Part shown: one piece after another, positions 1,454 through 26,144 of the stretch
How positions within the stretch are numbered: position 1 is the stretch's first letter
Layout: each line of letters opens with the position of its first letter
Position numbers and translations under genes: made by a program
IMG/VR virus record: IMGVR_UViG_2537561991_000013
Location: 1-26,414 of that record
From: a virus
Lineage: Duplodnaviria > Heunggongvirae > Uroviricota > Caudoviricetes
Length of the DNA: 26,414 bases
Reading direction: 5' to 3' (one strand)
Notes under the pieces: generated by a model
The model's input: only the letters and a program-made list of their open reading frames with translations
Told to the model about the DNA's origin: nothing
The model's database searches: none

Positions 1454-1472
1454 CCGCTCAATTCCTTTGCGC

Positions 1473-2750
<1,278 letters not shown>

Positions 2751-2772
2751 CTGCCCCGTTTTAGCGGGGCAG
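2751..2772 (-). terminator. hairpin (CTGCCCCG-TTTTAG-CGGGGCAG), probable terminator of the GH13 fragment
   Basis: Perfect 8-bp inverted repeat with a 6-nt loop, 14 bp downstream of the minus-strand stop at 2786; the U-tract after it on the minus strand is imperfect. Confidence 0.4.
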
Positions 2773-2785
2773 ATATAACATTAAA

Positions 2786-3871
2786 TTACAAATAGAGATA
2801 GTTCAGCGGTTCTCCTGTTTTCCCTAAAAGAAGAGCGCTACGCCCAGGAATATTGATATTTAGAGTTCCGCCTCTAAGCATAAATGCTTTACCAGGGGGG
2901 ATAATTTTTCGGGTATTAATAATAATGTTAACGCTATTACTCCCCATGTTTTTATATTTTCCAGGTTGCAATTTGTTAGGCCAGGCACCTTCAACTTCTT
3001 CGTTTCCTTTATTTATTATAATTAGTCCATCATGAGGAGAGTGATTAATGTTCACAGAATCCCCACGACTAAAGGCCAGAACGTTTTTAGTTGCAAATAC
3101 ACCCTCAAATGCGCTCCATATTCCTGCTTTATCTATATATAATGCGTGGAATTCATTGTAGAGCTGCTGATAGGTAGAGCAACCTTTATTAAGCCACGCC
3201 TCATCGCCAACACGCGTCGACCCATCATAATTTTTAATTTCAGTCGTTGATTTTAATACTTGGCCATCCCAGTAAACTAAAGGCCTGCTGAACGGGAGAG
3301 CGGCCATATATGCCATTGCTAATTGTTCATCTTGTTGATGGTTAAATAGAAAGTCATTGAAAATATTGCCATTGTTAGGAAAATCGTGTTTAATGTTAAT
3401 CAATATCCGTCTTTTTGATGGGATGCTTGAGATTGTGGAACCCGGTTTTGATGCAAGGGTTTGGAGATCGCCACCAAATGAAAAAGCTTTTATCGTCTTC
3501 ATGAGCAATGAAAAATCAATGGCGCTTAAATCATCTCTTTCATAAAGCAGCGATGACATTTGTTCTTCATCCAACTGACAAGTTACCAGATATTCCATGT
3601 AATTCATAACGACTTTTTCATGATATTTTGGGTTAAATAAATTAGTATTGTGTAACCGCTCATTATAATTTTTAAGCGGTGGGGTTATTGATCTTTCTAT
3701 TTGTTCATGTTTTGAGTGTTTTGCTGCATCGTAACGTAAACCTCGTACGCCATATTTTCGCATTTCACGAACGTATTGATTTTGCAGCATAATAACCTGG
3801 TCACTTTTGGGGGTTGTTTTAGGCATTCCATTTAAACGCTTTTCTTTTAATGCATGGAGGTTTTCCCATTC
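2786..3871 (-). pseudogene. GH13 (alpha-amylase family) gene fragment, 5-prime end removed at the IS3 boundary (possibly the ygaQ locus)
   Basis: ORF 2786..3826 contains GH13 region II (GLRYDAAKH) about 30 aa from its start and a region-IV-like FLFNHQQD; the frame stays open upstream with no stop until the IS3 left end at 3872, so roughly 150-200 N-terminal codons are missing. Confidence 0.6.
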
Positions 3872-3936
3872 TGATCTTACCCAGCAATAGTGGACACGCG
3901 GCTAAGTGAGTAAACTCTCAGTCAGAGGTGACTCAC

Positions 3937-4236
3937 ATGACAAAAACAGTATCAACCAGTAAAAAACCCCGTAAACAGCATTCGCCTGAATTTCGCAGTG
4001 AAGCCCTGAAGCTTGCTGAACGCATCGGTGTTACTGCCGCAGCCCGTGAACTCAGCCTGTATGAATCACAGCTCTACAACTGGCGCAGTAAACAGCAAAA
4101 TCAGCAGACGTCTTCTGAACGTGAACTGGAGATGTCTACCGAGATTGCACGTCTCAAACGCCAGCTGGCAGAACGGGATGAAGAGCTGGCTATCCTCCAA
4201 AAGGCCGCGACATACTTCGCGAAGCGCCTGAAATGA
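3937..4236 (+). CDS. insE: IS3 OrfA (transposase N-terminal / HTH component)
   Basis: [32 protein letters not shown]... from ATG 3937 with AGAGGTG RBS; the ORF track starts at an upstream GTG at 3928. Confidence 0.85.
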
Positions 4237-5099
4237 AGTATGTCTTTATTGAAAAACATCAGGCTGAGTTCAGCATCAAAGCAATGTGCCGCGTGCTCCG
4301 GGTGGCCCGCAGCGGCTGGTATACGTGGTGTCAGCGGCGGACAAGGATAAGCACGCGTCAGCAGTTCCGCCAACACTGCGACAGCGTTGTCCTCGCGGCT
4401 TTTACCCGGTCAAAACAGCGTTACGGTGCCCCACGCCTGACGGATGAACTGCGTGCTCAGGGTTACCCCTTTAACGTAAAAACCGTGGCGGCAAGCCTGC
4501 GCCGTCAGGGACTGAGGGCAAAGGCCTCCCGGAAGTTCAGCCCGGTCAGCTACCGCGCACACGGCCTGCCTGTGTCAGAAAATCTGTTGGAGCAGGATTT
4601 TTACGCCAGTGGCCCGAACCAGAAGTGGGCAGGAGACATCACGTACTTACGTACAGATGAAGGCTGGCTGTATCTGGCAGTGGTCATTGACCTGTGGTCA
4701 CGTGCCGTTATTGGCTGGTCAATGTCGCCACGCATGACGGCGCAACTGGCCTGCGATGCCCTGCAGATGGCGCTGTGGCGGCGTAAGAGGCCCCGGAACG
4801 TTATCGTTCACACGGACCGTGGAGGCCAGTACTGTTCAGCAGATTATCAGGCGCAACTGAAGCGGCATAATCTGCGTGGAAGTATGAGCGCAAAAGGTTG
4901 CTGCTACGATAATGCCTGCGTGGAAAGCTTCTTTCATTCGCTGAAAGTGGAATGTATCCATGGAGAACACTTTATCAGCCGGGAAATAATGCGGGCAACG
5001 GTGTTTAATTATATCGAATGTGATTACAATCGGTGGCGGCGGCACAGTTGGTGTGGCGGCCTCAGTCCGGAACAATTTGAAAACAAGAACCTCGCTTAG
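4233..5099 (+). CDS. insF: IS3 OrfB (DDE transposase catalytic component; normally made as an OrfAB fusion by -1 frameshifting)
   Basis: 288-aa ORF recognised as IS3 InsF; overlaps the orfA stop in ATGA arrangement. Confidence 0.85.
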
Positions 5100-5250
5100 G
5101 CCTGTGTCCATATTACGTGGGTAGGATCACGCAGGGGTCGGCCCATTTGAGCTTCAGATAGGAACGTTTGAATTCCTTTCACAAAATACATCACATACTG
5201 AACGTGAACATTCCCACTTTGATCTTAAGGCCAAAAAGTATGCAGGACTA

Positions 5251-6969
5251 ATGATTTTTAGGGATAGCTTGAGAGTATTACCTTATGGTCGAGTAGATAA
5301 TGATTTCTTCCAGATAGAAGAAAGACGTTCATGGAATGCAGGGCGATATTATTGGTCTAATAGAAGGATTTTTGGTTATATTGGAATTACTCAATCCAGT
5401 AATAAAGAGCTGAAAGATAAGTCGGGGAGAGAGGGATTCATAAGAAACCAGGCTGCAAGAGAACTGAAAACTATTATATCTAATTTGTTAACTGAACTTG
5501 CTGATAGATTTTTTGGTTCACGTTCTGATGACCGTAAAGAGCTTTTAGAACAAGTTAAGCGTGAAAAAGAGTTAAGAAAATCTGCTCAACAACAAGCTCG
5601 AAAATCAACACAAAAAAGTTTTTCAGAAGCTTTGAAGAATCAGACACCAGTTCTTGATGCTTCCTTGGAGGCTGTTAAAAGGCTGAAAACTAAGCTTGAT
5701 AAAACTGATGGTTCGTTAGATTTAAACTATCTTAAAATTATAGACAGTGATCTTACAAACTTAGATGCGTTGCGCAGTGAAATTAAAACGCCTATCAAAC
5801 CTCCAAAACTTGGAATGTATGAAGAGAAATATAGAGACTACAGAGATAAATTTAATGAGTTCTCTGCGTATATTCTACAAATGAAGTTAGCAATTAATAA
5901 ACTTGATTCTGAATTAAATAAACTTGAGCCTTCATTGTCAGCGAAAAATCACCTTGAAAAAAATCAAGGTATTATTAATTCTAAACTAACTAAGTTTAAT
6001 AACACGATAGAGGAGAAGATACATTCTCTTTTAAAAAAATGGGCCGATGAAATAAAGGTTGATCGAAGTGATTATTATGCTAAAACTATATCAGTTGTTG
6101 ATTCAATAGATAATGATTCACAAATTGAAAATGTGTTTAATTTGCTCGATAGTTTATATGTTGAGTCAGTTGATACCCTAACTTTCAAATATCAATCAAT
6201 AATAAAAGGTCTCGATAGATTATTTGAAGGTATAAACTTAGATTCAGCATTCTCATTATCTGAAGAAGAACGCTCATATTTTGAAGAAAAAGCTAAAAGT
6301 TTAAACGCGCTTGCACAGTTAGGTATTAGTGTTGAGATAATATCTCATGAACTTGAAGAAATGGATTCTATGGTAACCAGAGGACTAAACTCTCTTCCTA
6401 CTTCTGTAAAAGAACACCCTGGTTTTTCATTGGCGTTAAATGCTCACAGATCGCTTACTCAACAAATACGTTTCTTATCACCTTTGAAAATATCAGGTTA
6501 TCAATCCAGGCAGAGAATAACTGGAAAAAATATCATGGATTATGTCCTGAAGTTCTTTGGGGAGCGTTTCGAACGGCAACGAATAACTATTGAATTTAGT
6601 GAAGAGTTTAAGCAAATCGCAATAACAGATATACCATCAAGGATCTATCCTGTTTTTACTAATATTATCAACAATGCAATGTATTGGGTCAGTCTGTCAA
6701 ATAATAGGCTCATAAAGATTGGTTTTGTGAATTCTTTGGTTATCATAGCAAATTCTGGTCCGGCAATTGATACCGATGATATCCCGCGACTATTTGAACT
6801 ATTTTATAGCAAAAGAGCAAATGGACATGGGGTAGGTCTGTATCTATGTCGAGAAAACCTTGCTGTTGCACATCATAAAATATGGTATTCAGAACCTGAT
6901 GAAGGCGATAACTATTTAATAAAAGATGACGCTAATTTTGTGATCCAGTTCAATGGAGTGGAGTTCTAA
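5251..6969 (+). CDS. cytoplasmic histidine-kinase-like protein: coiled-coil-rich N-region, DHp-like H-box and HATPase_c catalytic domain; frame is open upstream to the IS3 end (5130), so the true 5-prime end is probably deleted
   Basis: C-terminal motifs: H-box-like VEIISHELEEMDSMV, N-box YPVFTNIINNAMYW, G1-like IIANSGPAIDTDD, F-box RLFELFY, G2 GHGVGLYLCRENLA. No hydrophobic TM segment. Visibly AT-rich; weak SD before the ATG at 5251; no in-frame stop between 5130 and 5251. Confidence 0.7.
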   Translation: MIFRDSLRVLPYGRVDNDFFQIEERRSWNAGRYYWSNRRIFGYIGITQSSNKELKDKSGREGFIRNQAARELKTIISNLLTELADRFFGSRSDDRKELLEQVKREKELRKSAQQQARKSTQKSFSEALKNQTPVLDASLEAVKRLKTKLDKTDGSLDLNYLKIIDSDLTNLDALRSEIKTPIKPPKLGMYEEKYRDYRDKFNEFSAYILQMKLAINKLDSELNKLEPSLSAKNHLEKNQGIINSKLTKFNNTIEEKIHSLLKKWADEIKVDRSDYYAKTISVVDSIDNDSQIENVFNLLDSLYVESVDTLTFKYQSIIKGLDRLFEGINLDSAFSLSEEERSYFEEKAKSLNALAQLGISVEIISHELEEMDSMVTRGLNSLPTSVKEHPGFSLALNAHRSLTQQIRFLSPLKISGYQSRQRITGKNIMDYVLKFFGERFERQRITIEFSEEFKQIAITDIPSRIYPVFTNIINNAMYWVSLSNNRLIKIGFVNSLVIIANSGPAIDTDDIPRLFELFYSKRANGHGVGLYLCRENLAVAHHKIWYSEPDEGDNYLIKDDANFVIQFNGVEF

Positions 6970-6970
6970 T

Positions 6971-8719
6971 ATGACAGTGGCAAATTATAATTCTCTTGTC
7001 CAGAAAACTTTCTGCGAAAATGCAATTCGTTCCGTTGTCATGATTGATGACGATTTTCTGACGTATTCTGAATCAATCAGGGCGTTGAATAACGAAGTTG
7101 ATTTAGACTACAACAAAATTGACTCATCTAAACGAGCCGCTACTCTTGAGAGCTTTTTTCAATCTAAAAATATGATTTGTGATGTTGACAATGGTTCTGT
7201 TAATTTCGATGTGGATCGGATTAGAAAATCAGATCTTATTATTGTAGATTATCATCTTGATAATAATGCACCTGATAAAACACTTAAACTATTACAAGAT
7301 TTGAAAGACTCCGATCATTTAAATATGATTGTAATATATACTAGAGAGAATTTAGAAACGGTTTGGATGCAGATATCATCGACTCTCAAAGGTGCTCTGG
7401 ATATCAACAGCTTGATCATTGACTACGATAATGAAGATGTCCAAAGTTATTGGGAAGACGTTGTATTACCGAACTTAAATGATAATGGTAATAAAGCTCT
7501 CACAAGAGATGAAACAATAGCCTATATTAAAGACAGTAAGCCTTGTAGAAGAATTAAAAGATTAATACATGATGATGCTGTGTTGGAGGAACAAAAGGAT
7601 AAAAACTTCATTGCAAAAATGATTGCAGAATATGCTGTGTCTAGAAATGCAATTATTTCTAGCAACACATCTGGCAATGTCATTCGGGGTGATGAAAGCG
7701 GAGTAAAATGGATTCAATGTGGTAATATCTTTGTCTCCCTATTTCATAAGGTTCAAGATGATCATGAAAACGATGGAGATAGGATTTGGCAAACTCTCAA
7801 TGATTCTCTCATTGAATGGAAACCATCTTATTATCAGTTAATAAAATCTGAAATTCAGAATGCAATCGAAGCTGAGGCTTTATCTTTTGTAAATCATTTG
7901 GCTAACGATCATTACGGTCAAGCTGCGTGGTTAAATGAGATATTAAAATCAGACTCGCCTGATATTAGATGTAGAAATATTGACTTTGTATTTGGTAATT
8001 TATCAGAAGAGCTTTATCAAAGACTTAAAAATAATAATACGCTGGATGAATTTATCAAAAGTGTTTTTGATAGCTATTCAAATGAATACGCTAACAGCGG
8101 AGTTGCTGCATTGCTCCAATATTGCTCTTCAAAAATGGATCTGCCATCAAATAATGATACTTATCACGAAATGTATCATGCTTTAAATATGAATTTGTCT
8201 TCAAAGAATTTTGAAGATGGTCATATTTCTACTGGCACTATTTTCTTTGATACAGAGTCGAACAAATGGTATTTATGTGTATCTGCGGCATGTGATTTGG
8301 TTCCTACTCAGGGTAACGACCCTCACCATGTAAGATTAAGTCCGCACAGGCTCATTAAAGTTCTGGAGCTTTTTAACGCCAGTCAGAGTAAAGCATTGCC
8401 ATTTGCTGAACATTCGAAATATATATATGTAATGCATAAAAATCAAAGAAAATATCTCTCTATTTTCGAAGGGGATAAAACGCTTCCTGTTGTTGATTAT
8501 ATGGTGGTGTTGAATCATGGAACAACAGTTGATGGCGAAGAAAAAAATATTATTTCTGCCGTGTTTTTAAGTAATATGGATGGCAACGTGCAAAATGTTC
8601 CTGTCCGACTCAAACTTAAATCTCAACTGAGAACTGGTTATGCAGAAAGATATCAGGCTATAGCGTCTCAGTATAGCTCAAGGATTGGTGTGGATTATGT
8701 ATCAATGATGCTACCATAA
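6971..8719 (+). CDS. receiver (REC)-like N-terminal domain fused to an unassigned ~430-aa C-terminal domain
   Basis: ATG at 6971 is 1 nt after the kinase stop, with GGAGTGGAG as SD (the ORF track starts at 6953). N-terminus has REC-like beta1 VVMIDDD, beta3 DLIIVDYHLD, beta4 MIVIYT; the rest has no motif I can assign. AT-rich like the upstream gene. Confidence 0.55.
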   Translation: MTVANYNSLVQKTFCENAIRSVVMIDDDFLTYSESIRALNNEVDLDYNKIDSSKRAATLESFFQSKNMICDVDNGSVNFDVDRIRKSDLIIVDYHLDNNAPDKTLKLLQDLKDSDHLNMIVIYTRENLETVWMQISSTLKGALDINSLIIDYDNEDVQSYWEDVVLPNLNDNGNKALTRDETIAYIKDSKPCRRIKRLIHDDAVLEEQKDKNFIAKMIAEYAVSRNAIISSNTSGNVIRGDESGVKWIQCGNIFVSLFHKVQDDHENDGDRIWQTLNDSLIEWKPSYYQLIKSEIQNAIEAEALSFVNHLANDHYGQAAWLNEILKSDSPDIRCRNIDFVFGNLSEELYQRLKNNNTLDEFIKSVFDSYSNEYANSGVAALLQYCSSKMDLPSNNDTYHEMYHALNMNLSSKNFEDGHISTGTIFFDTESNKWYLCVSAACDLVPTQGNDPHHVRLSPHRLIKVLELFNASQSKALPFAEHSKYIYVMHKNQRKYLSIFEGDKTLPVVDYMVVLNHGTTVDGEEKNIISAVFLSNMDGNVQNVPVRLKLKSQLRTGYAERYQAIASQYSSRIGVDYVSMMLP

Positions 8720-8789
8720 TTATTATATTTTAGGCGTGGTGATTTTTTTCGCCATGCCTATTTTATATTTATCATCACAATGATGTTGT

Positions 8790-9101
8790 TTATTTTTGTT
8801 TAAGTCTTCTAAGCTTCATGCATTCTAATGAGAATAATAATAGAGTTGTGCTGTATATAAAGCCAGAGTTAGTTAATAACTTTAAATTTAATGCTTCAGG
8901 ATTTTCACTGAGAAAGTGAAAGGCATAAACTAAGTATACAGCTAAAGTAGCCGTTCCAATTGTTGGTCCAATATCGCCTTGATCATGAGGTTCAAGGTTT
9001 ACATTGAACTTGAAGATTAGCCATTCAAATCCCCAAGTAAAAAAAACAACTAATATCATGGCTGCGAATAATTTCGCGATGTTATCTGCTGATGGATTCA
9101 T
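8790..9101 (-). CDS. small hydrophobic protein (about 3 predicted TM segments), function unknown
   Basis: 103-aa ORF with three hydrophobic stretches (LFAAMILVVFFTWGF..., IGTATLAVYLVYAFHFL, FIYSTTLLLFSL); convergent with the kinase/receiver operon, AT-rich. Confidence 0.4.
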   Translation of the reverse strand: MNPSADNIAKLFAAMILVVFFTWGFEWLIFKFNVNLEPHDQGDIGPTIGTATLAVYLVYAFHFLSENPEALNLKLLTNSGFIYSTTLLLFSLECMKLRRLKQK

Positions 9102-9243
9102 CAGAACAGATTGTTTCTGAAAAAATTCACAAAGTGAGAGTCCGAAAAAAATAAAAAAAGTGGTCTGGAACTAAATTTTTCAAAAACTTTGAATAGGGTT
9201 TCCATTTTCTTTACCTTCAGGATTATATTAGCTATTCTGATAC

Positions 9244-10473
9244 TTAGGCTACCAGAGCATTTGATCTTTGAGCTTGAACGTAATCACTCCACCATTGCAT
9301 CAAACTCTGTCGCTCTATCAGATATTCTGCACGATTGTATGCTGCGATAATTTCATCTTTTTTCGAGTGGGCAAGCGCTGCCTCAAGAACTTCAGCTCTG
9401 AATTTACCAGACTCCTCTGCCGCTGTTCGTGCAATAGAACGCATACCGTGAGCTACAAGCTCGCCTCCGAACCCCATTCGGATGATAGCTGCGTTGGCTG
9501 TTTGTTCATGCATATGATTAAGAGGCGCTTTTATGCTGGGGAAAACCCATTCTCTATGCCCACTTATTGATTTCATTAATTCAAGGATGCGCAAAGCTTC
9601 TTTACTCAAAGGAACTTTGTGAAGCTTTTTCATTTTCATGAAATCAGCAGGAATGTTCCAAATGCTGTTGGTTGTATCAATATCAGACCACCTTGCGCGA
9701 ACGGCTTCACCCGGACGAACCCATGTCAACAATTGCCATTCAATTAGCATACGTGTTTCCAACCGGATTGACGCATTCGTCAAAGATTCCATAAACCTTG
9801 GCAATTCGCTTGGGGGAAGGGCAGGCATATTTTGCTTTTTTGGTTTACTGAATCTTTGACCAAGGTTGTCAGCCGGGTTGAACTCAATAAGTTCTTCAGT
9901 AGCTGCCCACCGGAAGATTTCATTCAGACGTGAAATGATACGGCGTAGAGTTTCCAATACGCCTCGTTGCTCAATAGGATCAAGGTGTTGTTTTAAGAGC
10001 TTAGGTCGGATCTCATTGATAGGGACATTACCCAGACCGGGAAAGACATTTCTCTCTAAGCTGCGCCAGATGTCTGCTGCATGGTCTTGTGAGATACCTG
10101 ATGTCTTTACCTTCTCATCTAACCATTTCCGCGCTACGGCTTGGAGAGTGTGCTCAGTAGCACTCTTTAATGCCTTCGCCTTATCGTTGTTATGGATTTG
10201 GGGATCAACACCATTTGCCAGAAAGGAGAGATATTCATCACGTAAGGCTCTGGCTCTTGCAAGGGTAAGGTGAGGATATGTCCCAAGGCTCATTTTGGTT
10301 CTTTTCTTGCTCACTGGTACTGCATACCTGAAATACCAATTTTTCTTGCCTCCTTTCGCCAAAGGAGCGATTCGTAGAATCAGACCATCACCGTCAAACA
10401 AGTTGATTTCTTTATCGGCTGGCTTGGTGCTTTTGATTTCAGTGTCAGTGAGCTTCTTAGCGATTTTTGCCAT
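9244..10473 (-). CDS. P4-type tyrosine integrase (CP4-57 IntA-like)
   Basis: ORF 9244..10515; likely start at ATG 10473 (MAKIAKKLTDTEIK...) with GAGGG RBS; C-terminal tyrosine-recombinase motifs (HGMRS...LAH...AAYNRAEY); sits 165 bp from the ssrA 3-prime fragment in the same orientation, as ssrA-intA does in K-12. Confidence 0.85.
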   Translation of the reverse strand: MAKIAKKLTDTEIKSTKPADKEINLFDGDGLILRIAPLAKGGKKNWYFRYAVPVSKKRTKMSLGTYPHLTLARARALRDEYLSFLANGVDPQIHNNDKAKALKSATEHTLQAVARKWLDEKVKTSGISQDHAADIWRSLERNVFPGLGNVPINEIRPKLLKQHLDPIEQRGVLETLRRIISRLNEIFRWAATEELIEFNPADNLGQRFSKPKKQNMPALPPSELPRFMESLTNASIRLETRMLIEWQLLTWVRPGEAVRARWSDIDTTNSIWNIPADFMKMKKLHKVPLSKEALRILELMKSISGHREWVFPSIKAPLNHMHEQTANAAIIRMGFGGELVAHGMRSIARTAAEESGKFRAEVLEAALAHSKKDEIIAAYNRAEYLIERQSLMQWWSDYVQAQRSNALVA

Positions 10474-10575
10474 TTTGGGACCCTCGGTTTTTGGACCCTT
10501 CTTAGTGGGTCCCATTCAGGGTGCCATAACTCGTAGTTCTCAGCAATTCTCACTGGACGACAATAGACGTAAAAA

Positions 10576-10638: not shown

Positions 10639-10674
10639 TGGTGGAGCTGGCGGGAGTTGAACCCGTATCCGAAA
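10639..10674 (-). other. partial copy of the 3-prime end of ssrA (tmRNA): att-type junction, not a functional tmRNA gene
   Basis: TGGTGGAGCTGGCGGGAGTTGAACCCGtaTCCGAAA is the reverse complement of the tmRNA 3-prime end (...GGACGCGGGTTCAACTCCCGCCAGCTCCACCA) with 2 mismatches; the match stops after ~36 nt and the rest of ssrA is absent. Confidence 0.75.
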
Positions 10675-10868
10675 AATTCTTAACCAATTGAATATTAATG
10701 ATTTTTCTAATTTAAAATACCTCACGTGCATTTTACGTGCATATTGTAGTACCTCTAACGTCCTGATTCTGTCCAACATTTTGAAGTGTTTAGGCGCCAC
10801 TGGGGCGGTGATTAGCGCTGTTTTGTGCTGTTCATAGCACTTCAAGACTATTCAATTCAGAGCAATCG

Positions 10869-10897
10869 TTGAAGAATTACCCGTAAGGTAATATCAT
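10869..10897 (+). promoter_or_regulatory. sigma-70-like promoter candidate (TTGAAG - 17 bp - TATCAT)
   Basis: -35 TTGAAG at 10869..10874 and -10 TATCAT at 10892..10897 with 17-bp spacing, upstream of the hairpin at 10932 and the ORF at 11009. Confidence 0.35.
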
Positions 10898-10931
10898 ACT
10901 ATTTAGGTAACTGCGGTTATCACCATCAAGG

Positions 10932-10967
10932 GCCACTGATGACGCTGTTATCATCAGTGGCTTTTTG
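10932..10967 (+). terminator. strong intrinsic-terminator-like hairpin (11-bp perfect stem GCCACTGATGA / TCATCAGTGGC, 8-nt loop, TTTTT tail)
   Basis: Perfect inverted repeat 10932..10942 / 10951..10961 followed by TTTTTG; about 40 nt upstream of the RBS of the 11009 ORF, so it may be an attenuator or the end of a ~60-nt RNA. Confidence 0.5.
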
Positions 10968-10970
10968 TAC

Positions 10971-10992
10971 CTTCACTGCACAGCCAGTGAAG
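10971..10992 (+). promoter_or_regulatory. 8-bp perfect inverted repeat (CTTCACTG-cacagc-CAGTGAAG) just upstream of the RBS of the 11009 ORF
   Basis: Inverted repeat ends 4 nt before GAGGAG (10997..11002); candidate operator or translational control hairpin. Confidence 0.35.
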
Positions 10993-11008
10993 TGTTGAGG
11001 AGACTAGC

Positions 11009-11350
11009 ATGAGAACAGTAGCGAGAAGATCGATACAGACGATTGAGCGTCGGACTCAACTCGTCAGTTCTTTTGTTGACTCAAACACAGCAAACGAGTT
11101 CTTCGTGAGAAGACTGAGTGATCGTGTCTCCCCGGCACGTCAGCTGTTTATTGTGACATTGAACAATGAGGTTCGTGACGGTGACGTGATCCCGTTCGCT
11201 GAGATCGCCATGAACAAAGAAAAATTGCGCTATGTTGTGAAGCCAGCAGATCAGTATCCTCAGTATGTAAGCAGTAATCTGCTGAAGAAAATTGAAGCGG
11301 CAATTGCTCTATACATGCAGAAGAACTACAGGGAAATTAACTACCATTAA
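11009..11350 (+). CDS. hypothetical protein (113 aa), first gene of a two-gene cassette at the int-proximal end of the prophage
   Basis: ORF with GAGGAG RBS at 6-nt spacing; no recognisable motif; followed 11 bp later by a second ORF. Confidence 0.5.
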   Translation: MRTVARRSIQTIERRTQLVSSFVDSNTANEFFVRRLSDRVSPARQLFIVTLNNEVRDGDVIPFAEIAMNKEKLRYVVKPADQYPQYVSSNLLKKIEAAIALYMQKNYREINYH

Positions 11351-11361
11351 AAGGTTGCTGA

Positions 11362-12129
11362 ATGGCTCCTGCGTTAATACCTTCATATAACAAGGACTTG
11401 AACATTACGCCATTTGGCGAAAAACGTCTTATTGAGTCATTCTATTTTTTCACTGCCGAGGCTGGCTTACTGAGGGCTGATGAGTACATTGTCAGTTCTG
11501 GTGAGTTTCAGTACTACTTGGATGTGTATCAACTGGGATGTTCCACCGACGACTTTTTTTTAGACTATGGCAGTGACCTTCTTGATTCGAAGGTTCCAAT
11601 GCAGGATCTGGTCAATACCCTCTTGGGTCTTGATATGGTAGACGATAACAAAACGATAAGAATAGGTCGTATACAGTTCAACGACTTTAATTTTATCGAA
11701 GAGAACGGTCAGATGATGACCGGAAAGCAAGTGAAAAGCGCTGTTATCGCACAGGATTTCCAATCAGCAGGTTTGGCGCGTGAGATCTATAAAATGCTTG
11801 CGCGAAAGCATGAGTTTCTCATCTGCGATAACATTCAAAGTATTGCCGGTGGTGCTCTTTGGGCTAGTAGCATCATTCGAATTGCCGAGGTACGGATCTA
11901 CAATTCACGCACGAAGAAATTTATGGACATACTTGGTCCAGGTGCGCGTGGCGTTTCAGGTACTTTGCCATGGAGTGCGAATGATCTGTCTGTAGATGAG
12001 ATTGTTCGCTGGGGTCGTGCGTATGATGATGAAAACTGTTGTCGTCACATTGTACATGTTATCTGTAAGGACCGACTCATTGACGATCAATTTCATGATT
12101 ATGTTTCGATAGGTGGCGCGACAGAATAA
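11362..12129 (+). CDS. hypothetical protein (255 aa), second gene of the cassette
   Basis: ORF closely following the 113-aa gene; no recognisable motif; ends at a bidirectional terminator shared with the integrase. Confidence 0.5.
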   Translation: MAPALIPSYNKDLNITPFGEKRLIESFYFFTAEAGLLRADEYIVSSGEFQYYLDVYQLGCSTDDFFLDYGSDLLDSKVPMQDLVNTLLGLDMVDDNKTIRIGRIQFNDFNFIEENGQMMTGKQVKSAVIAQDFQSAGLAREIYKMLARKHEFLICDNIQSIAGGALWASSIIRIAEVRIYNSRTKKFMDILGPGARGVSGTLPWSANDLSVDEIVRWGRAYDDENCCRHIVHVICKDRLIDDQFHDYVSIGGATE

Positions 12130-12141
12130 CCATCAAAAAGA

Positions 12142-12164
12142 CCCGGCATTTGCCGGGTTTTTTC
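12142..12164. terminator. bidirectional intrinsic terminator (CCCGGC-ATTT-GCCGGG flanked by A-run and T-run)
   Basis: 6-bp GC stem with AAAAAG upstream and TTTTTTC downstream; sits between the convergent 11362..12129 gene and the integrase. Confidence 0.6.
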
Positions 12165-12170
12165 TTCAAA

Positions 12171-13349
12171 TCACTTCTTCATTCCAGATTCCATTGCGGT
12201 TTTCCCGTCGTATTCAGCCAGGTATTTACCGTAATTGCGGAACAGCATTTCCGGCCCCTTATGCCCCATCTGCCCGGCAAGCCAGAAAAGGTTTACACCC
12301 TGGCTAATGTGTCTGGTGGCGAATGTGTGGCGCGTCTGGTACGGGTTACGGTAGCGCACACCAGCTTTTTTCAGGGTCGGCACCCATGCTTTTTTACGGA
12401 TAGCGTCGGCGTTCGTCCAGGGATCTCCCGTTTTCGGATCGCTGAATATGAACTCACTTTTCATAAAGGTGTATTGCTTCTGCGCCTGCAGGGCCGCCAG
12501 CGCCTCACTGTTCAGCTCCACCTTACGGGTACCGGCTTTTGTCTTGGTGCCTTTAAGTACCCCTACGACACTGGCCGCCTGTATGTGCGCTGTATTACCT
12601 ATAAAGTCGATATCGGTCCAACGTAATGCGCATAGCTCAGAGCTGCGTAGCCCTGTATTGAAGGCGAAGCGGAACAGATTCTGCCATTCCTGATACTTGC
12701 AGTGCTGATATATGGCACTGGTTTCCGCAGGCGCAAACGGATCAACTTCGTAATCGTCGGCGTTCGGTTTACTGTCGACCACGTGATACCGGCTGGCGCT
12801 GACAAGAGTTACCGGGTTAATAGTCAACAGGCCATCAGTTACAGCCTCATCAATGGCGCTGCGCAGAAATGACAGGTTATTCCTGATTGTTTTCAGCTTA
12901 GTTTTTCGGCTGGCTATCCAATTTTTTAGTACCGCAGGCGTCAATTCTGTTACATGTAGTTTATGTAGTTCTGATAGTGCTGATAGACATTTTTCGTAAC
13001 CGCCAATGGTTGACGGCGACAGATTGCGGTTCATGCAAATTTTCAGGTATTCATCAAGATAGGACTTAATATTTTTGGTTTTCTTTACTACACCGAATAA
13101 CTCCAGTTTTTTGGAACTGGGGAAATATTTCGCATATTCAAACGTTCCGCTGGCGATCTGATTTTGTATCTCCCCTAGCAGGCGCTCAGCATATTTAATA
13201 CCACGTGTATTTGCCTCAAGCCGAGACAGGGGCTCCCTGCAAAGAACCCCTTTATATGTGAAAGTGATAACTAGTGTTGAAGCAGTTTTATGCTTACGAA
13301 TAGTTACTCCTCTTGGCAGAGATAATAATCCTTGTTCTTTCTTGCCCAT
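12171..13349 (-). CDS. lambdoid-phage tyrosine integrase (not lambda Int)
   Basis: 392-aa ORF from ATG 13349; C-terminal catalytic motifs RHTFATRH...GHKGPEMLFRNYGKY; an overlapping excisionase-like gene lies upstream. Confidence 0.85.
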   Translation of the reverse strand: MGKKEQGLLSLPRGVTIRKHKTASTLVITFTYKGVLCREPLSRLEANTRGIKYAERLLGEIQNQIASGTFEYAKYFPSSKKLELFGVVKKTKNIKSYLDEYLKICMNRNLSPSTIGGYEKCLSALSELHKLHVTELTPAVLKNWIASRKTKLKTIRNNLSFLRSAIDEAVTDGLLTINPVTLVSASRYHVVDSKPNADDYEVDPFAPAETSAIYQHCKYQEWQNLFRFAFNTGLRSSELCALRWTDIDFIGNTAHIQAASVVGVLKGTKTKAGTRKVELNSEALAALQAQKQYTFMKSEFIFSDPKTGDPWTNADAIRKKAWVPTLKKAGVRYRNPYQTRHTFATRHISQGVNLFWLAGQMGHKGPEMLFRNYGKYLAEYDGKTAMESGMKK

Positions 13350-13513
13350 TTTGAAACCTCTATTAAGTCGACCCAGCGTTCTTTAACTCCGTCGACTTTT
13401 AATACATGAACCCCTTCTTTCCATATTCCTCTTTGTATCCGTTTGTTAACGGCATCAACCGTTTCTCCCGCGTCGCGGCAGTAGGTTGATATAGGCACGC
13501 AATCCAGCCCCAT
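13304..13513 (-). CDS. excisionase-like small DNA-binding protein
   Basis: 69-aa ORF overlapping the integrase start by 46 bp (typical xis-int arrangement); basic, with W/K-rich C-terminus. Confidence 0.5.
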   Translation of the reverse strand: MGLDCVPISTYCRDAGETVDAVNKRIQRGIWKEGVHVLKVDGVKERWVDLIEVSKWARKNKDYYLCQEE

Positions 13514-13671
13514 ACATCACCTCACATAACACTCAGCCCACGGCAGTGGCACCACACGTCAAACATTCGCTTCACAACTTCACGACAGTAGAAGCCGTCA
13601 ACATCTCGCGTCAGGTTATAGCGATTGCCGTAACGCTGGTGGACCCATTGTTCAAATGCTTTATTCATTCT

Positions 13672-13950
13672 TTACTTCCTTTTTATGGCTCGTAATTTTT
13701 TCAGGTGCTTTTCCTGCTCAGTGTCCGCGAGAATTTTGCGGTACTCCTGGTGGTCAATATGTTCGAACAGGCAGTTTAACTCACCAATGCGTACCCGCCC
13801 GGATCGTCCGTCCATCCGTCGAAAGAACACTGAGTGCTCAGTGATGCGAGTAATCACCACGGGGTATCCGGCTCTGTCCGTGTATATCTGACCGCGTTGA
13901 ATCAAAGCGAACATGTGGTTATCCCCATCGACAAATTGAGAACACAACAA
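13672..13950 (-). CDS. hypothetical small phage protein
   Basis: 92-aa ORF in the leftward early operon; no motif assigned; start codon uncertain. Confidence 0.4.
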   Translation of the reverse strand: MLCSQFVDGDNHMFALIQRGQIYTDRAGYPVVITRITEHSVFFRRMDGRSGRVRIGELNCLFEHIDHQEYRKILADTEQEKHLKKLRAIKRK

Positions 13951-14037
13951 ACGCTACTGCGAATACCACCCCCAGAGTTACGATTGCATCAGGCCAGCTC
14001 ATTGATTCACCTCCTGCGGCGTCCTGGTATTCGATTT

Positions 14038-14606
14038 TCATTCCGGATGCTCCTGAGCCACATTGAAATCGCCATGATCACGACAAGGCATCACAACAAA
14101 TTCAGGATTGCCATACATTGAGTTGATGATGGAATCAAACTGAATTCTGACCGCTTGCCCGTCACCGGAGGAACGTAACTGGACGGGAATAAATTTACGC
14201 TCACGACCAAACATCTTCTCTGGATAACTCAGGTAACCCGCCTGGATCACCGGGTGTGTACAGAGGTCAAATTTTTTCGGAATGATGCGTTCCAAATCCG
14301 GAAAACAACCGTCCACCAATTTAATGCCGGTAATGGACAGCCGGCGCTGAAACTGGTCGCGATGAACAGGATCGGCTCTTTACTAAAAATCAGCTCTGTC
14401 GTTTCGGCTTTGGCCGGGACGCCACCTTCGAACTGGACAATGATGTTTTTCTTCGTCCGGATGCCGTGAGTCATGCGCAGTGCTACGAAACCATTGGTTG
14501 CCTCAATATGTTTTGGCGTGATGTGAAGACCGTTCAGGTAATAACGAACGTCGTTTTTAGCAGCGCACACCAGAGCGGCGCGAATAAGTTTTGACTGGAT
14601 GATCAT
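14038..14606 (-). pseudogene. DNA polymerase III beta-clamp (DnaN)-like gene split into two overlapping frames (frameshift or authentic disruption)
   Basis: ORF 14247..14606 has KNDVRYYLNGLHI...EATNGFVALRM (compare DnaN QDVRYYLNGMLFE...VATDGHRLAV); ORF 14038..14319 in another frame has VDGCFPDLERIIPKK (compare DnaN VDGRFPDYRRVLPKN). Together they are about half the length of cellular DnaN. Confidence 0.5.
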
Positions 14607-15352
14607 GCTTTATCCTCCCATCCGATTACCTGAAAAAGCCCCATCTTCGGGTGATACCAGCGTGTGCCGCGTGGTTCAGCCTCTGACATCATTTGGTGGA
14701 ACGCCGCCATAAATGTCTCAAGCTCGACGACAGCCCTGCGAGACAACAGACCGTCCGGAGTCATAAATTCGTGCGTGTCGGTAGGGATGTGGTAGGCGTT
14801 GACCAGATTCCGACACTTGGCGTCACTCATTCCGCTTTTGGCTACCACCTGGCGGTAACCGACATATCCGGTGCGCATTGTGCCGCGTTTGATGTTCTCC
14901 ACAGCTTTGGTGACCGTTTCGATCTTCTCTTCAACATGACTCAGGCGCTTCTGCTGGCGAACGGCATCGGCGGCCATTGCAGCGATCATCTCCATTTCCG
15001 TCAGCGGCGCGTGAGTTCGGAAATAGCTGTTAACCAGTTCGCGCTGAACCTGCCATGCAAGAGCATCGTTAAAAGGCTTCGTCAACATCAGGTAACCAGA
15101 CTCGAAAAGAATGATCCCTTTGGCAGTTCGCGCGGCAAAGGCATCAGAAAGTGACTCCGTACGTATTACGTCCGCAGTCATTTCAAGAAAATCCACCCCT
15201 TCGATAAAGTGAGAACGGTTGCGGTTAAACGCAGCACGGGCGGTACCTTCCGGGCGCTGGTGGACGTCATCAATTATTGCAAATGTCACAACACGCTGAC
15301 CGCGATATTCGATTACCGGAAACTGTTTGTTGTTGATGGTTACAATATTCAT
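14603..15352 (-). CDS. phage ORF6N-domain protein (antirepressor-like)
   Basis: Start at ATG 15352 (MNIVTINNKQF...) with GGAGAT RBS; N-terminal segment VVTFAIIDDVHQRPEGTARAAFNRNRSHFIEGVDFLEMT resembles the ORF6N signature (RN...F.EG.DF..LT); the domain assignment is from memory. Confidence 0.5.
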   Translation of the reverse strand: MNIVTINNKQFPVIEYRGQRVVTFAIIDDVHQRPEGTARAAFNRNRSHFIEGVDFLEMTADVIRTESLSDAFAARTAKGIILFESGYLMLTKPFNDALAWQVQRELVNSYFRTHAPLTEMEMIAAMAADAVRQQKRLSHVEEKIETVTKAVENIKRGTMRTGYVGYRQVVAKSGMSDAKCRNLVNAYHIPTDTHEFMTPDGLLSRRAVVELETFMAAFHQMMSEAEPRGTRWYHPKMGLFQVIGWEDKA

Positions 15353-15395
15353 TTTTATCTCCAGACAGCCCGGCGTGTAATACCGGGCATATGTA

Positions 15396-16223
15396 TTACT
15401 TAACCTGAATAAATGGTGTGTTGGCACCGCTGGTCATGTATTGCGGCAGTGTACCGTTCCACTTGTTGATGGCTTCCAGCTCCATAACACCGGGGTTCTG
15501 GCGCAGAGCTTCACCGCGTAAACGAATAGCATCGGCTTCGGCCTGGGCTTTTGTGCGAATCGCATCTGCCTGTCCGGCAGCTTCCGCGCGCAACATGTTG
15601 GCTTCCGCTTCGCGCTGTTTTACTTCCTGCTCGCGTTGCAGGGTTTTCTGGTTCGCCGTGACTTTGGCATTAATGCTGTCGATAACAGTAGGTGGGTACT
15701 CCGGCTTACCCACATATGAGAGGCTCATTACCTGAATACCGATGGGCGTCATTTCTTCCTGAATGTCTTTAAGAGCTGCATCCAGCAGCTCAGACTTGCC
15801 GCCGTCGATAAATTTGTCGGTGGTCATTTTGCTGGCCAGTCGGTTGAGTGCGTCGGCTATCTTCTGGCGCAGGTCGGTGTCGGTAATGTCGTCCACGCCT
15901 TTGCGGTAGGTCTGAAAGACTGTGGTAACTTTGGATGGATCAACTTTGTAGGCCACGCCGATGTGATAGCCGATGGTTGTACCGTCACTCATCTGGAAAC
16001 TGAATGGATCATCGTAGGTCTTCATCTGCTTAAAGGTCGGGAAGATGTAAACCTCAGTGTTCCATCCCGTCCAGTAGCGCCCAACACCGACCACTTCACC
16101 GACGCCTTTATCGTCGCCCAGTTTGTTTACTTTGATGCCCACATTACCAGGCTCAACGCGATCGCAACCGACAAGGCCAATGGTCGGCAGAACAAGGGCT
16201 AAAGCAAAAAGTAATTTTTTCAT
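15396..16223 (-). CDS. SPFH/band-7 (prohibitin-like) lipoprotein
   Basis: Signal peptide with lipobox (MKKLLFALALVLPTIGLVGC), SPFH-like core and an Ala/Glu-rich coiled-coil C-terminus (AEANMLRAEAAGQADAIRTKAQAEADAIRL). Confidence 0.6.
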   Translation of the reverse strand: MKKLLFALALVLPTIGLVGCDRVEPGNVGIKVNKLGDDKGVGEVVGVGRYWTGWNTEVYIFPTFKQMKTYDDPFSFQMSDGTTIGYHIGVAYKVDPSKVTTVFQTYRKGVDDITDTDLRQKIADALNRLASKMTTDKFIDGGKSELLDAALKDIQEEMTPIGIQVMSLSYVGKPEYPPTVIDSINAKVTANQKTLQREQEVKQREAEANMLRAEAAGQADAIRTKAQAEADAIRLRGEALRQNPGVMELEAINKWNGTLPQYMTSGANTPFIQVK

Positions 16224-16408
16224 CTTTTATCCTTAGAAAAAGAAAGACCCTTATAAATGGCATAAATGCAGGGCGGGGTCAGACACGCCAGAGCAAAGCC
16301 AGAAATCACTGCTACCGTATCCTTCATTGATATGAGGGCCGGAACGATTAATCCGTAAATACATGTGATAATTGCCAGTGATATAACTATTCTGAAATAA
16401 ATGTTCAT
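16220..16408 (-). CDS. small membrane protein (2 predicted TM), translationally coupled to the SPFH gene
   Basis: 62-aa hydrophobic ORF whose stop overlaps the SPFH start by 4 nt. Confidence 0.45.
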   Translation of the reverse strand: MNIYFRIVISLAIITCIYGLIVPALISMKDTVAVISGFALACLTPPCIYAIYKGLSFSKDKR

Positions 16409-16468
16409 GGTCCTCCTGATGTATTCGGCTTGCCTTATTTAATTGCGTCATGGTTAATTTCGTTTACG

Positions 16469-16861
16469 TCAGAATGGTTTTGTTGCCATCAGTTCGTAAT
16501 ATCCGGCGCTCCATGTGTCATATTTTCTGAACCATTTTTCTGTATACTGTTTCCTGGCGATGAGTCTGCGCAGTCGTCTGATTGTTCGCTGGTGTGCGCG
16601 GGTATACTCTGTGGTTGATTCTCCACGTTTCCATATCTCATTCCTGTTGAAGATAAAACGCTTGTCAGGATAGCGTTGTCGGAATCCTGAACGTTCAAAA
16701 GCGCGGGTGGTCATAAAGAATGCCAGGTAACGAATTGCCGTTTTTCGGGTGAGGCATTTTTTTGTTCTTCCGTGGCGTGTTACAAAAAATAACGGGCCGA
16801 CGGGTGTATCATGTTTCTGTAATGCCTGGTCAATGGTGCTGGCGGTGCGGTTGTCGATCAT
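16469..16861 (-). CDS. hypothetical basic phage protein
   Basis: 130-aa ORF, Arg/Lys-rich; no motif assigned. Confidence 0.4.
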   Translation of the reverse strand: MIDNRTASTIDQALQKHDTPVGPLFFVTRHGRTKKCLTRKTAIRYLAFFMTTRAFERSGFRQRYPDKRFIFNRNEIWKRGESTTEYTRAHQRTIRRLRRLIARKQYTEKWFRKYDTWSAGYYELMATKPF

Positions 16862-17076
16862 TTCTTTATTTCTCCCGAATAACGTTCATGACTCATTACT
16901 TCCCAGTTCCGGCCGTCGTCTTTCGATAACAGCCGCCAGCGACGGTTAACCTTCAGACTGAGATATCCGGTGCGCTGTATCCGATGCGGAAATATCCGTC
17001 GGCATCGGTACAACAACAGGACCTGCAATGCCTGCCGGTGGATCCGCTCAGGAATGCGTGTTGCTGTTAATGCCAC
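16858..17076 (-). CDS. hypothetical small protein
   Basis: 72-aa ORF overlapping the downstream start by 4 nt; overlaps 17048..17263 in another frame, so one of the two may be spurious. Confidence 0.3.
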   Translation of the reverse strand: MALTATRIPERIHRQALQVLLLYRCRRIFPHRIQRTGYLSLKVNRRWRLLSKDDGRNWEVMSHERYSGEIKK

Positions 17077-17263
17077 CGGTTTCCTCCTGAGCAGGTGCTG
17101 TTATCTGATACCCCGCTCTTTCTGCCAGCCGTATGAATGTATCCATGCTGGCAATCAGCTCGCCATCGCGGACTTTGCAGACACCTGTGACTTGGCCATT
17201 TTCAATTGTCATAACGATCTGCACTTTTTCGTGCACAACAGATACAGGGGATAAATTAGCCAT
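17048..17263 (-). CDS. hypothetical small protein
   Basis: 71-aa ORF, start/stop coupled with 17263..17622. Confidence 0.35.
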   Translation of the reverse strand: MANLSPVSVVHEKVQIVMTIENGQVTGVCKVRDGELIASMDTFIRLAERAGYQITAPAQEETGGINSNTHS

Positions 17264-17622
17264 CAGTTAATTCCTCCGCTGATATATTTTTCTTTCGCGT
17301 AATCAATAATCTCTTGAAAAAGGTTGTCTATAATTAACTTTCCGGTTTCAGTCAGGTATTCAGTATGTTGATTAATCCCGATAGCATTCTGGTATGCAGT
17401 GTGGATTTCGGTTTCACCCTCCACCCGGCCCAATTCACCACGGGTAATACCTTCGAAGCGTAACAGCAACTGGTTTATAAACTGTTCAGTTATTTCTATG
17501 GTCGTAATGTTCCCATCAGGAAGGTCAACAATAAGCAGATTACCACCTGTTTTACGTTTTATTCGATGGAGTGCCGCAACAGCTATACGGCGACGATATG
17601 TATTAATGGGTTCATGTGTCAT
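17263..17622 (-). CDS. hypothetical phage protein
   Basis: 119-aa ORF in the leftward early operon. Confidence 0.45.
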   Translation of the reverse strand: MTHEPINTYRRRIAVAALHRIKRKTGGNLLIVDLPDGNITTIEITEQFINQLLLRFEGITRGELGRVEGETEIHTAYQNAIGINQHTEYLTETGKLIIDNLFQEIIDYAKEKYISGGIN

Positions 17623-17806
17623 TTGTTATTTCCCGTATGCTTTCCTGAGAAACAGTATTGCAACTGACCAGTATCCTGCATTAGCCATTAATAATGCGGT
17701 TTTATAAGCACTTCTGTTTTTCATGCATCACCACCATTTTCAGGTTGTGGAAATTCCCGACCAGAGACCGTTATGTTTTTATGGGTGATTGTTTATTGAG
17801 TTTTCT

Positions 17807-17998
17807 TTATTCGTTGCGCAGTGTGTCGATATACGCGTAAGCCATTTCACAGGTTTTATTCATGGAGCGAATGAGGCAACATAAATAATCGTCTGTCTCT
17901 CCTGAGTCGGGCGAATTCTTAAATATAAATTCAAGCATTGATGTATTCTCTTTTATTTGTGCTGCCACTTCCTCAAGAATATTTAATGGAGTTTTCAT
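17807..17998 (-). CDS. hypothetical small protein
   Basis: 63-aa ORF, stop/start overlapped with 17995..18219. Confidence 0.35.
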   Translation of the reverse strand: MKTPLNILEEVAAQIKENTSMLEFIFKNSPDSGETDDYLCCLIRSMNKTCEMAYAYIDTLRNE

Positions 17999-18219
17999 GT
18001 TCTTTGCTCCTTAAATGCATCGCATGCGCTTCTGGCGTATTGTTGTGCCAGTAAAAAGATATCATCCGAAAGTTCATCACATTCTTCATCACCGGAAGCC
18101 GAAATGATTAACCCCGCTTCAAGCAGTACGGCAATGTGATGAAAAGTTGTCTCCGGTTCGTTGGTAAGGCCTTTGAACATTTTCATCTTATGCTTCCTCC
18201 TGATTTTGTTTATAAGCAT
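17995..18219 (-). CDS. hypothetical small protein
   Basis: 74-aa ORF between the HTH gene and the 63-aa ORF. Confidence 0.35.
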   Translation of the reverse strand: MLINKIRRKHKMKMFKGLTNEPETTFHHIAVLLEAGLIISASGDEECDELSDDIFLLAQQYARSACDAFKEQRT

Positions 18220-18607
18220 CAGTCAATAACAACATTGGATCACAGCCAAGAACATTAGCCAGAGGGATAAGCATGCTGATGGTTGGTTCGTACTCTCCGC
18301 TCTCCCACTGGATGATAATTTCTTCATCGAGATCGAGCAGCCTAGCGAGTTCGGCGGTTGTTAAGCCGCAGGTTTCGCGTTGGGTGCGAATCCGATTCTG
18401 GGAATTAATAGCTAAATTTTGTTTGCATAAACGTGACGCGGTGAGGCTATATTTTTGAGTTACAGCCAGGATGGAGCTGGCAAGTTCAATTAACTCAGGG
18501 TTATTGCTGCTATACAGTAGTGCACCAGTCCCTACTAAGAGCTGAATATTCTCAAGAGCATCGTGCTGATTTGTTGGTAATCCCATATACGATGACATTT
18601 TTCTCAT
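18188..18607 (-). CDS. HTH (XRE-family) DNA-binding protein, first gene of the leftward early operon
   Basis: C-terminal half has an XRE-type HTH (GLTTAELARLLDLDEEIIIQWESGEYEPTISMLIPLANVLGCDP); CGATAAA-type half-sites lie in its upstream region (18640..18690). Confidence 0.5.
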   Translation of the reverse strand: MRKMSSYMGLPTNQHDALENIQLLVGTGALLYSSNNPELIELASSILAVTQKYSLTASRLCKQNLAINSQNRIRTQRETCGLTTAELARLLDLDEEIIIQWESGEYEPTISMLIPLANVLGCDPMLLLTDAYKQNQEEA

Positions 18608-18696
18608 CCTCTATAATTGCTTTGGTGAGTTCGATACCTATGTCAAGATAATAGGTTTACCGATTTCACCTGTCAATCGGTTTATCGATTTTTTCC

Positions 18697-18723
18697 CAAA
18701 AAAAAGCCCACTTAAGAGTGGGC
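18697..18723 (-). terminator. intrinsic terminator of the repressor gene (GCCCACT-TAAG-AGTGGGC with U-run on the minus strand)
   Basis: 7-bp stem preceded on the plus strand by A9, i.e. a U-tract after the hairpin on the minus strand; 19 bp downstream of the cI-like stop. Confidence 0.6.
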
Positions 18724-18741
18724 GGGTTAAATGATTTTTGC

Positions 18742-19434: not shown

Positions 19435-19466
19435 TGCGATTTTCCTCCCCTCTCTATCTTGGCTAG

Positions 19467-19486
19467 TTTATCGGCTTTCCGATAAA
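19467..19486. promoter_or_regulatory. operator-like palindrome TTTATCGG-CTTT-CCGATAAA in the cI/cro intergenic region
   Basis: Perfect 8-bp inverted repeat with a 4-bp spacer between the divergent repressor and Cro-like genes; related CGATAAA half-sites recur at 18640..18690. Confidence 0.5.
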
Positions 19487-19553
19487 TATTCTATGTTTAA
19501 CGTTGAATATCGCTTTTCCTGTTGTTATTATGCGTTCAATAGGAGATGCGATT

Positions 19554-22437: not shown

Positions 22438-22463
<26 letters not shown>
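21918..22463 (+). CDS. nu1: terminase small subunit (lambda Nu1)
   Basis: 181-aa ORF MEVNKKQLADIFGASIRTIQNWQEQGMPVLRGGGKGNEVLYD... recognised as lambda gpNu1; position right after cos. Confidence 0.9.

Positions 22464-26144
<3,681 letters not shown>

Follow-up and report, generated by a model that had tools for sequence, protein, structure and literature searches.

We analysed a 26,414-nucleotide stretch of viral-record DNA (IMG/VR record IMGVR_UViG_2537561991_000013, positions 1 to 26,414; hereafter the window), in which a complete copy of the insertion sequence (IS) IS3 lies on the plus strand at 3872-5129 between two incomplete genes. On its left is the 3′ fragment of a ygaQ-like GH13 alpha-amylase pseudogene (2786-3871, minus strand), and on its right the 3′ fragment of a kinase gene of a genomic island (5130-6969, plus strand). 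The first 10.7 kb of the window are 99.9% identical to Escherichia coli FDAARGOS_1059, the match ending at 10674, and the gene order in that genome is lhgO, glaH (csiD), amylase fragment, IS3, 'ATP-binding protein', 'response regulator receiver domain', hypothetical, integrase, ssrA and smpB. IS3 thus stands at the far edge of an island whose integration site is the gene for transfer-messenger RNA (tmRNA). An original prediction, made from the letters of this DNA, held that the IS3 copy lacks a target-site duplication and that an IS3-mediated adjacent deletion, or recombination between two IS3 copies, had removed the 5′ ends of both neighbouring genes. Our comparisons support this and refine it, in that the allele in the window is a secondary one.

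The IS3 copy is 1,258 bp long and has imperfect terminal inverted repeats, in which 28 of 39 positions match (left TGATCTTACCC..., right ...GGGTAGGATCA; outermost bases TGATC...GATCA); an inverted-repeat finder is blind to them because they contain no 9-nt exact seed. Both open reading frames (ORFs) are intact, i.e. orfA (3937-4236, plus strand; match to HTH_Tnp_1) and orfB (4233-5099, plus strand; matches to rve, rve_2 and HTH_21). The length, the TG/CA ends and the overlapping ORFs with a programmed -1 frameshift are those of the IS3 group of the IS3 family. The Prokaryotic Genome Annotation Pipeline (PGAP) labels the copy in FDAARGOS_1059 'IS3-like element IS3 family transposase, programmed frameshift'; the window copy shows no differences from it, and one single-nucleotide polymorphism (SNP) relative to three other IS3 copies at the locus. 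The 3-bp target-site duplication of a simple IS3 insertion is absent, as had been noticed: the flanks are TTC on the left (3869-3871) and CGC on the right (5130-5132).

On the minus strand the amylase frame runs without interruption from 3871, at the left end of IS3, to its stop at 2786 (361 codons plus stop). A 2,253-bp version of the gene, already a pseudogene, is present in O157, RM10466 and CAVP776, where the frame runs on natively past the IS3 start position and the sequence reads CCCATTC/ATCCTTAGA... across the left breakpoint (slashes mark junctions). The window retains 1,089 of these 2,253 bp and has lost 1,164 bp. In Pfam searches the full-length O157 gene matches the catalytic domain PF00128 at residues 264-525, barely above threshold (22.2 vs 22 bits), plus PF02806, while in the window fragment Alpha-amylase_C (PF02806) remains and the catalytic domain is only partly present. 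PGAP marks the fragment 'missing N-terminus'.

The plus-strand kinase frame is open from 5131 to its stop at 6969. Its 612 amino acids align gap-free, with 99% identity, to residues 377-988 of 988-residue homologues from Salmonella, Klebsiella and Serratia, and the DNA of window positions 5129-9300 is 99.3-99.4% identical to four Salmonella and Serratia islands, with the homology starting at the IS3 end (5129/5130). Intact island copies read ...AATCCTAACGCAGGAGTC... across the kinase breakpoint, and CGC is native there (...CCTAACGCAGGAGTC). In full-length kinases the N-terminal domain is HATPase_c_3, and HEF_HK and HATPase_c come after it (Pfam); the fragment has kept the latter two and lost the first. 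PGAP annotates only 5251-6969, as an intact 572-residue 'ATP-binding protein' (WP_000577254.1) that equals residues 417-988 of the kinase. Upstream of the annotated ATG (5251), 40 further residues match residues 377-416 of the 988-residue homologues without a difference. The WP_000577254.1 family has 2,075 member sequences in a single 90% cluster, and the kinase fragment is widely mis-annotated as an intact protein.

Homology to both intact genes ends exactly at the IS3 termini. TTC is native to the amylase and CGC is native to the kinase; the two flanks thus never adjoined each other, and no duplication would be expected. Its absence from the window is explained by a deletion at IS3. Each flank continues as different, non-adjacent sequence in unrearranged genomes, which is what an IS-associated deletion junction looks like. 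As 68 complete E. coli genomes share the identical junction, it is no assembly artefact. Alignment to the intact GH13 and kinase homologues, which the original prediction had proposed as a check, has thus given exact breakpoints and shows that both genes continue past them, i.e. both are truncated at their 5′ ends. Two observations that could have undone the prediction are excluded as well. The open frames upstream of the annotated starts are not fortuitous, given the 40 identical kinase residues and the native continuation of the amylase, and IS3 does not simply insert here without a duplication. Strain JS316 carries a simple IS3 insertion about 375 bp deeper in the amylase gene with a clean 3-bp TTC duplication (locus L021, 6533-7790), which shows that a 3-bp duplication does accompany IS3 insertion at this locus. 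Strain JNU carries a duplication-less IS3 that fuses the amylase to a truncated DUF262 gene (L020, 6586-7843). Both copies lie in the same amylase gene and in the same orientation; the amylase pseudogene is a recurrent IS3 site.

We then compared the window with intact islands to estimate what was deleted. The remnant ends in a P4-type tyrosine integrase (9244-10515, minus strand; Pfam Arm-DNA-bind_3, Phage_int_M and Phage_integrase), beside which lies the 27-bp attachment (att) core of the ssrA 3′ end (TGGTGGAGCTGGCGGGAGTTGAACCCG) at 10639-10665, the proximal att of the remnant. In FDAARGOS_1059 the same integrase adjoins an intact ssrA, the arrangement expected of an island integrated at the tmRNA 3′ end. 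No second copy of the core was found in the window, down to any 15-mer of it; this single copy is consistent with deletion of the distal att, a loss that had been raised as a possibility from the outset. In intact islands the kinase is preceded by a C5 DNA methylase gene, three small ORFs, a relaxase gene, further ORFs and two tyrosine recombinase genes. At least 11 kb of island DNA were deleted; the distal end was not reached, and a walk into an Enterobacter contig met no repeat of the ssrA core within 3.4 kb. The deleted interval includes 1,164 bp of the amylase, the first 376 kinase codons, the C5 methylase, the relaxase and the two tyrosine recombinases. The tRNA-Ile gene ileY lies just past the full-length amylase in the strains that keep it, i.e. 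O157, RM10466 and CAVP776 (L003, 10900-10975; L017, 11899-11974; L025, 5898-5973), and by synteny ileY falls within the deleted interval in all derived genomes described below. What E. coli has kept of the island is a 5.5-kb stump that has no distal att and is unable to excise.

Two IS3-bearing alleles of this junction occur among the 5,426 complete E. coli genomes that we surveyed. Type I, the allele of the window (...CCCATTC/IS3/CGCAGGGG...), is present in 68 genomes according to a 44-mer junction probe. Type II (...CCCATTCATCCTTAGAGATGTTATCT/IS3/CGCAGGGG...) is present in ~437 genomes (e.g. O26 RM10386, E. coli W and SE11), as judged from junction-specific probes and fetched loci. The right junctions are identical, and type II has 19 more native amylase bases on the left (L019, 2638-2690; window 3852-3871). 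Its 19 additional native bases, next to an identical right junction, make type II the older of the two. In enterotoxigenic E. coli 120899 and O178:H19, the 19 bp are all that distinguishes type I from type II across 2.4 kb to the left, IS3 itself and 1.4 kb to the right. The window allele is thus a second-generation product, formed in place when the deletion grew by 19 bp at the left end of IS3. In the window and its closest relatives the type I junction lies on a different amylase/glaH haplotype (haplotype a), with 47 differing sites in 2.4 kb (1472-3871; compared with L019, L023 and L024), the first of which is only 60 bp from the IS3 junction. A concatenated probe found no type II on haplotype a in the survey; a probe for a simple TTC insertion on the same haplotype was swamped, as joining TTC to the IS3 end reproduces a native 28-mer. 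Most likely, the window haplotype came about when homologous recombination exchanged the core-side flank and stopped at the heterology.

The survey also bears on how often the large deletion occurred. A segment comprising the methylase and the 5′ part of the kinase gene had zero matches in the 5,426 genomes (type I genomes were not searched separately for the 5′ half of the amylase), while the retained kinase part is present in 561, in 560 of them at ≥99% identity. The intervening DNA was thus deleted, not inverted or translocated. As the lost half is absent from these genomes and the retained part is nearly identical throughout, the deletion happened once; these matches indicate a single origin in E. 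coli from an intact ancestor that is unsampled. It follows too that no reciprocal IS3 junction involving the missing kinase half can exist in these genomes, and the original suggestion to look for other IS3 copies with reciprocal flanks therefore fails on the kinase side.

In 72 complete genomes the two gene fragments are joined without IS3, in six junction variants (L002 and L011-L016; equivalent to window 3860-5140). Most of these genomes are E. coli that produce Shiga toxin (STEC), i.e. O103:H2, O45:H2, O111:H8 and one labelled O121. Two variants derive from type I: scar A (CCCATTC/AGGGG) has lost IS3 plus CGC, 1,261 bp in all, and scar B (TTTTCC/CGCAGG), whose parent is a type I haplotype, has lost CATTC plus IS3 (1,263 bp). 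Eight genomes have scar A (O103:H2, one labelled O121 and further ones without a stated serotype), and another 8 have scar B, among them O103:H2 strain 12009 and O45:H2. The other four derive from type II. Scar C1 (GAGATG/CGCAGG) has lost TTATCT plus IS3 (1,264 bp); scar C2 (GAGATG/CAGG) has lost TTATCT, IS3 and CG (1,266 bp); scar C3, the commonest and the form of O111:H8, resembles C1 with CG added (GAGATG + CG + CGCAGG; net 1,262 bp); and scar C4 (GAGAT/CACGCAGG) has lost 1,263 bp at a GAT microhomology of 3 nt, with the terminal CA of IS3 left in place. The removals of 1,261-1,266 bp are thus near the length of IS3 (1,258 bp), with small variable scars. No scar holds more than a subset of the flanks of type I or type II, which makes the scars derived and not ancestral; the order of alleles runs from type II through type I, and from both to the scars. 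Two other interpretations were tried and rejected: the O103 allele CCCATTC/AGGGG is not a pre-insertion site, since the CGC missing from it is native to the kinase, and the 13 extra bases in O111-type scars are neither IS3 footprints nor templated insertions, since type II shows them to be native amylase.

The serotypes of the scar genomes overlap those in which iee, the gene for the IS-excision enhancer (IEE), has been reported (O157:H7, O26:H11, O103:H2, O111:H8 and O121:H19), and the IEE protein is reported to promote both the excision of IS3-family elements and deletions in the DNA beside them, and to have a microhomology-mediated end-joining activity (PMC9397093, PMC9943667, bioRxiv 10.1101/2023.06.07.543989). 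IEE-promoted excision of IS3-family elements in STEC is attributed to Kusumoto et al. 2011, as cited in PMC9397093 and PMC9943667, and IS3 together with IEE has been found to yield both deletion and excision experimentally (PMC8860574). We appended a 180-bp probe from iee (ECs_1305, Sakai) to the junction query and counted a second match. The probe matches 56 of the 60 scar genomes listed, compared with ~749 of 5,426 genomes overall (~14%), a contrast that is uncorrected for phylogeny. This co-occurrence is suggestive of a role of IEE in promoting the IS3 excisions.

Taken together, these results point to the following history. A mobilizable island integrated at ssrA would once have lain between ssrA and the ygaQ-like amylase pseudogene, with the ancestral order, from ssrA, of integrase, small ORF, Response_reg_2 gene, 988-residue GHKL/histidine kinase, C5 methylase, relaxase and recombinases. 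An IS3 copy would have resided where one end of the deletion was to be, and the other end of this copy would then have been joined to a distant site, removing the 5′ third of the kinase, the remainder of the island with the distal att, ileY and the 5′ half of the amylase. The first product would have been type II (...GATGTTATCT/IS3/CGCAGG...). A second, small adjacent deletion of 19 bp of amylase at the IS3 left end would have produced type I (...CCCATTC/IS3/CGCAGG...). In the window lineage the amylase side may later have been swapped for a 3%-divergent haplotype by recombination ending within 60 bp of IS3, and in iee-positive STEC lineages IS3 would later have been excised, leaving small scars. 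We put the probability of this account as a whole, in which IS3 marks a deletion junction that was subsequently extended, recombined onto another haplotype and excised, at roughly 85%. Within it, the two truncations with their exact breakpoints, the succession of type II, type I and scars, the single origin and the repeated, independent loss of IS3 are shown by the comparisons. The mechanism of its first step is less certain: transposase-mediated adjacent deletion seems the somewhat better candidate, at slightly better than even odds, and recombination between two IS3 copies is the main competitor.

Several observations weigh against parts of this account. A precursor with a single IS3 insertion and a TCT duplication in the amylase had no match among the 5,426 complete E. 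coli genomes, and one with a CGC duplication in the intact kinase had none among the GTDB species representatives. As no precursor allele was found, the first step could equally have been recombination between two IS3 copies. The occurrence of one type I junction on two amylase haplotypes calls for a crossover inside a 60-bp stretch or else for a second origin. As to excision, the association with iee is confounded by phylogeny, the scars falling in a small number of STEC clades, and IS3 persists in O26 strains that are iee-positive.

The two-copy possibility supposes that IS3 inserted twice in the same orientation, with TCT duplicated in the amylase and CGC in the kinase, and that RecA recombination between the copies left one hybrid IS3 with unmatched flanks. 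We regard it as a tangible though lesser possibility. The amylase gene is a repeated IS3 target (the simple insertion of JS316 and the duplication-less junction of JNU), IS3-bearing genomes have a median of 4 IS3 matches, and IS-IS recombination is among the two standard causes of missing duplications (PMC11708052). Neither single-insertion precursor was recovered in the two genome sets just named, although the ancestor is unsampled anyway, and the 19-bp step would need a further insertion 19 bp away plus another recombination. A quite different sequence of events, in which a double-strand break or illegitimate recombination made the deletion first and IS3 then integrated into the break without duplication, is improbable at this locus, even though break-integration has been proposed for IS5, IS481 and de novo duplication-less insertions at rearrangement junctions (Ngan et al. 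2024, PMC11708052). It would lead one to expect an IS-free junction with more flanking sequence, and none exists among the 72 IS3-less genomes; all the IS3-less alleles found are derived, holding flank subsets only, and one of them keeps the terminal CA of IS3.

The deletion at IS3 being accepted, type I on haplotype a could still have arisen independently, if IS3 inserted at TTC in that haplotype and DNA of type I or type II, arriving afterwards, recombined by way of IS3 on the left and the core genome past ssrA on the right. The proximity of the first haplotype SNP to the junction, the lack of a type II on haplotype a and the presence of a full-length haplotype-a amylase in CAVP776 would all fit. 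Such an origin nevertheless demands that IS3 inserted at the very phosphodiester bond used in haplotype-b type I, and we consider it unlikely. Finally, IS3 could a priori have inserted in the ordinary way, next to frames that are open by chance, and lost its duplication through point mutations, but this is refuted and deserves almost no credence: the flanks belong to two different genes with known intact forms, the upstream kinase residues are identical to 377-416, and the amylase continues natively elsewhere.

The processes themselves are standard, textbook IS activity, i.e. adjacent deletion or IS-IS recombination followed by IEE-type excision, and knowledge of how IS3 works is unchanged by this locus. 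The junction resembles the IS-mediated deletions described by Ngan et al. 2024 in its precise IS ends, its missing duplication, its flanks that are non-contiguous in reference genomes and its small later extension (19 bp here). In the Lenski long-term lines, IS150 deletions are often small first and then extended, and a 14-bp extension step is illustrated in the same study (PMC11708052). Unlike that laboratory time series, the present case comes from a natural population, its starting insertion is unsampled, the two mechanisms are not separable, and the element is IS3 itself. A second parallel is the insertion-deletion-excision (IDE) model of Kanai, Tsuru and Furusawa 2022 (PMC8860574), which involves the same IS3, adjacent deletion ('creep') and then loss with variable scars; the scars in the iee-carrying serotypes O103:H2, O111:H8 and O121 also agree with reports on IEE in STEC. 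In contrast to the IDE model, no operon was formed here, because the remnants are divergently oriented gene fragments, and the excised IS3 had no duplication, so that excision could restore no gene.

What the locus adds, at modest value, is a naturally sampled deletion-extension-excision series of one IS3 copy. The authors of the IDE model consider such a sequence hard to detect in nature (PMC8860574), and we suggest, tentatively, that this locus might be a population-scale record of it. If this is true, scars left by a duplication-less IS3 could discriminate between models of excision. Scar A, for instance, equals IS3 plus 3 bp outside one end, which is expected if the backbone is resealed at the figure-eight strand-transfer point, and not from repeat slippage; the joining of scar C4 at a GAT microhomology fits the reported end-joining activity of IEE. 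The allele series could also mark phylogroup B1, serve in STEC typing and provide natural material for models of IEE excision. For annotation, it means that the 572-residue 'ATP-binding protein' entry, with >2,000 E. coli members, is the tail of a 988-residue kinase, and that the adjacent island is a non-excisable stump.

The island itself is comparable to CP4-57 of E. coli K-12 and other tmRNA islands: a P4-type integrase lies beside the ssrA 3′ end, the locus has ssrA on one side and ygaQ-csiD on the other, and a lambdoid prophage lies in tandem as a second element. Unlike CP4-57, its cargo consists of a methylase, GHKL kinase and Response_reg_2 module plus a relaxase, and the E. coli copy is only a stump. 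The tandem prophage occupies 10675-26414 at the same ssrA att and includes genes for an integrase (12171-13349), an S24 repressor (18742-19434), a large terminase (22438-24363) and a portal protein (24563-26164). ARAGORN found no tmRNA in the window, because the prophage lies between the att copy and the real ssrA, which is beyond the window.

In intact islands the C5 DNA methylase, the kinase (HATPase_c_3, HEF_HK, HATPase_c) and the Response_reg_2 protein form a three-gene module (L004, 8833-14717), which could be an uncharacterised methylase-linked system of restriction-modification-like or defence character. From this module E. coli retains the kinase core and the response regulator (window 5130-8719), without the methylase. 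The Response_reg_2 gene, the partner of the kinase, is intact (6953-8719, plus strand; Pfam PF19192, E = 3.6e-31) and has the same gene order as in intact islands. PADLOC gave no match for the kinase and one weak, irrelevant match for the response-regulator protein. Further decay of the stump is seen in individual strains: an IS3-family element lies inside the response-regulator gene in O103 WL1467 (L002, 7840-10902), IS1 splits the kinase fragment in strain 99_0288, and the kinase fragment has an internal loss in strain C3 (L018, 5932-7479).

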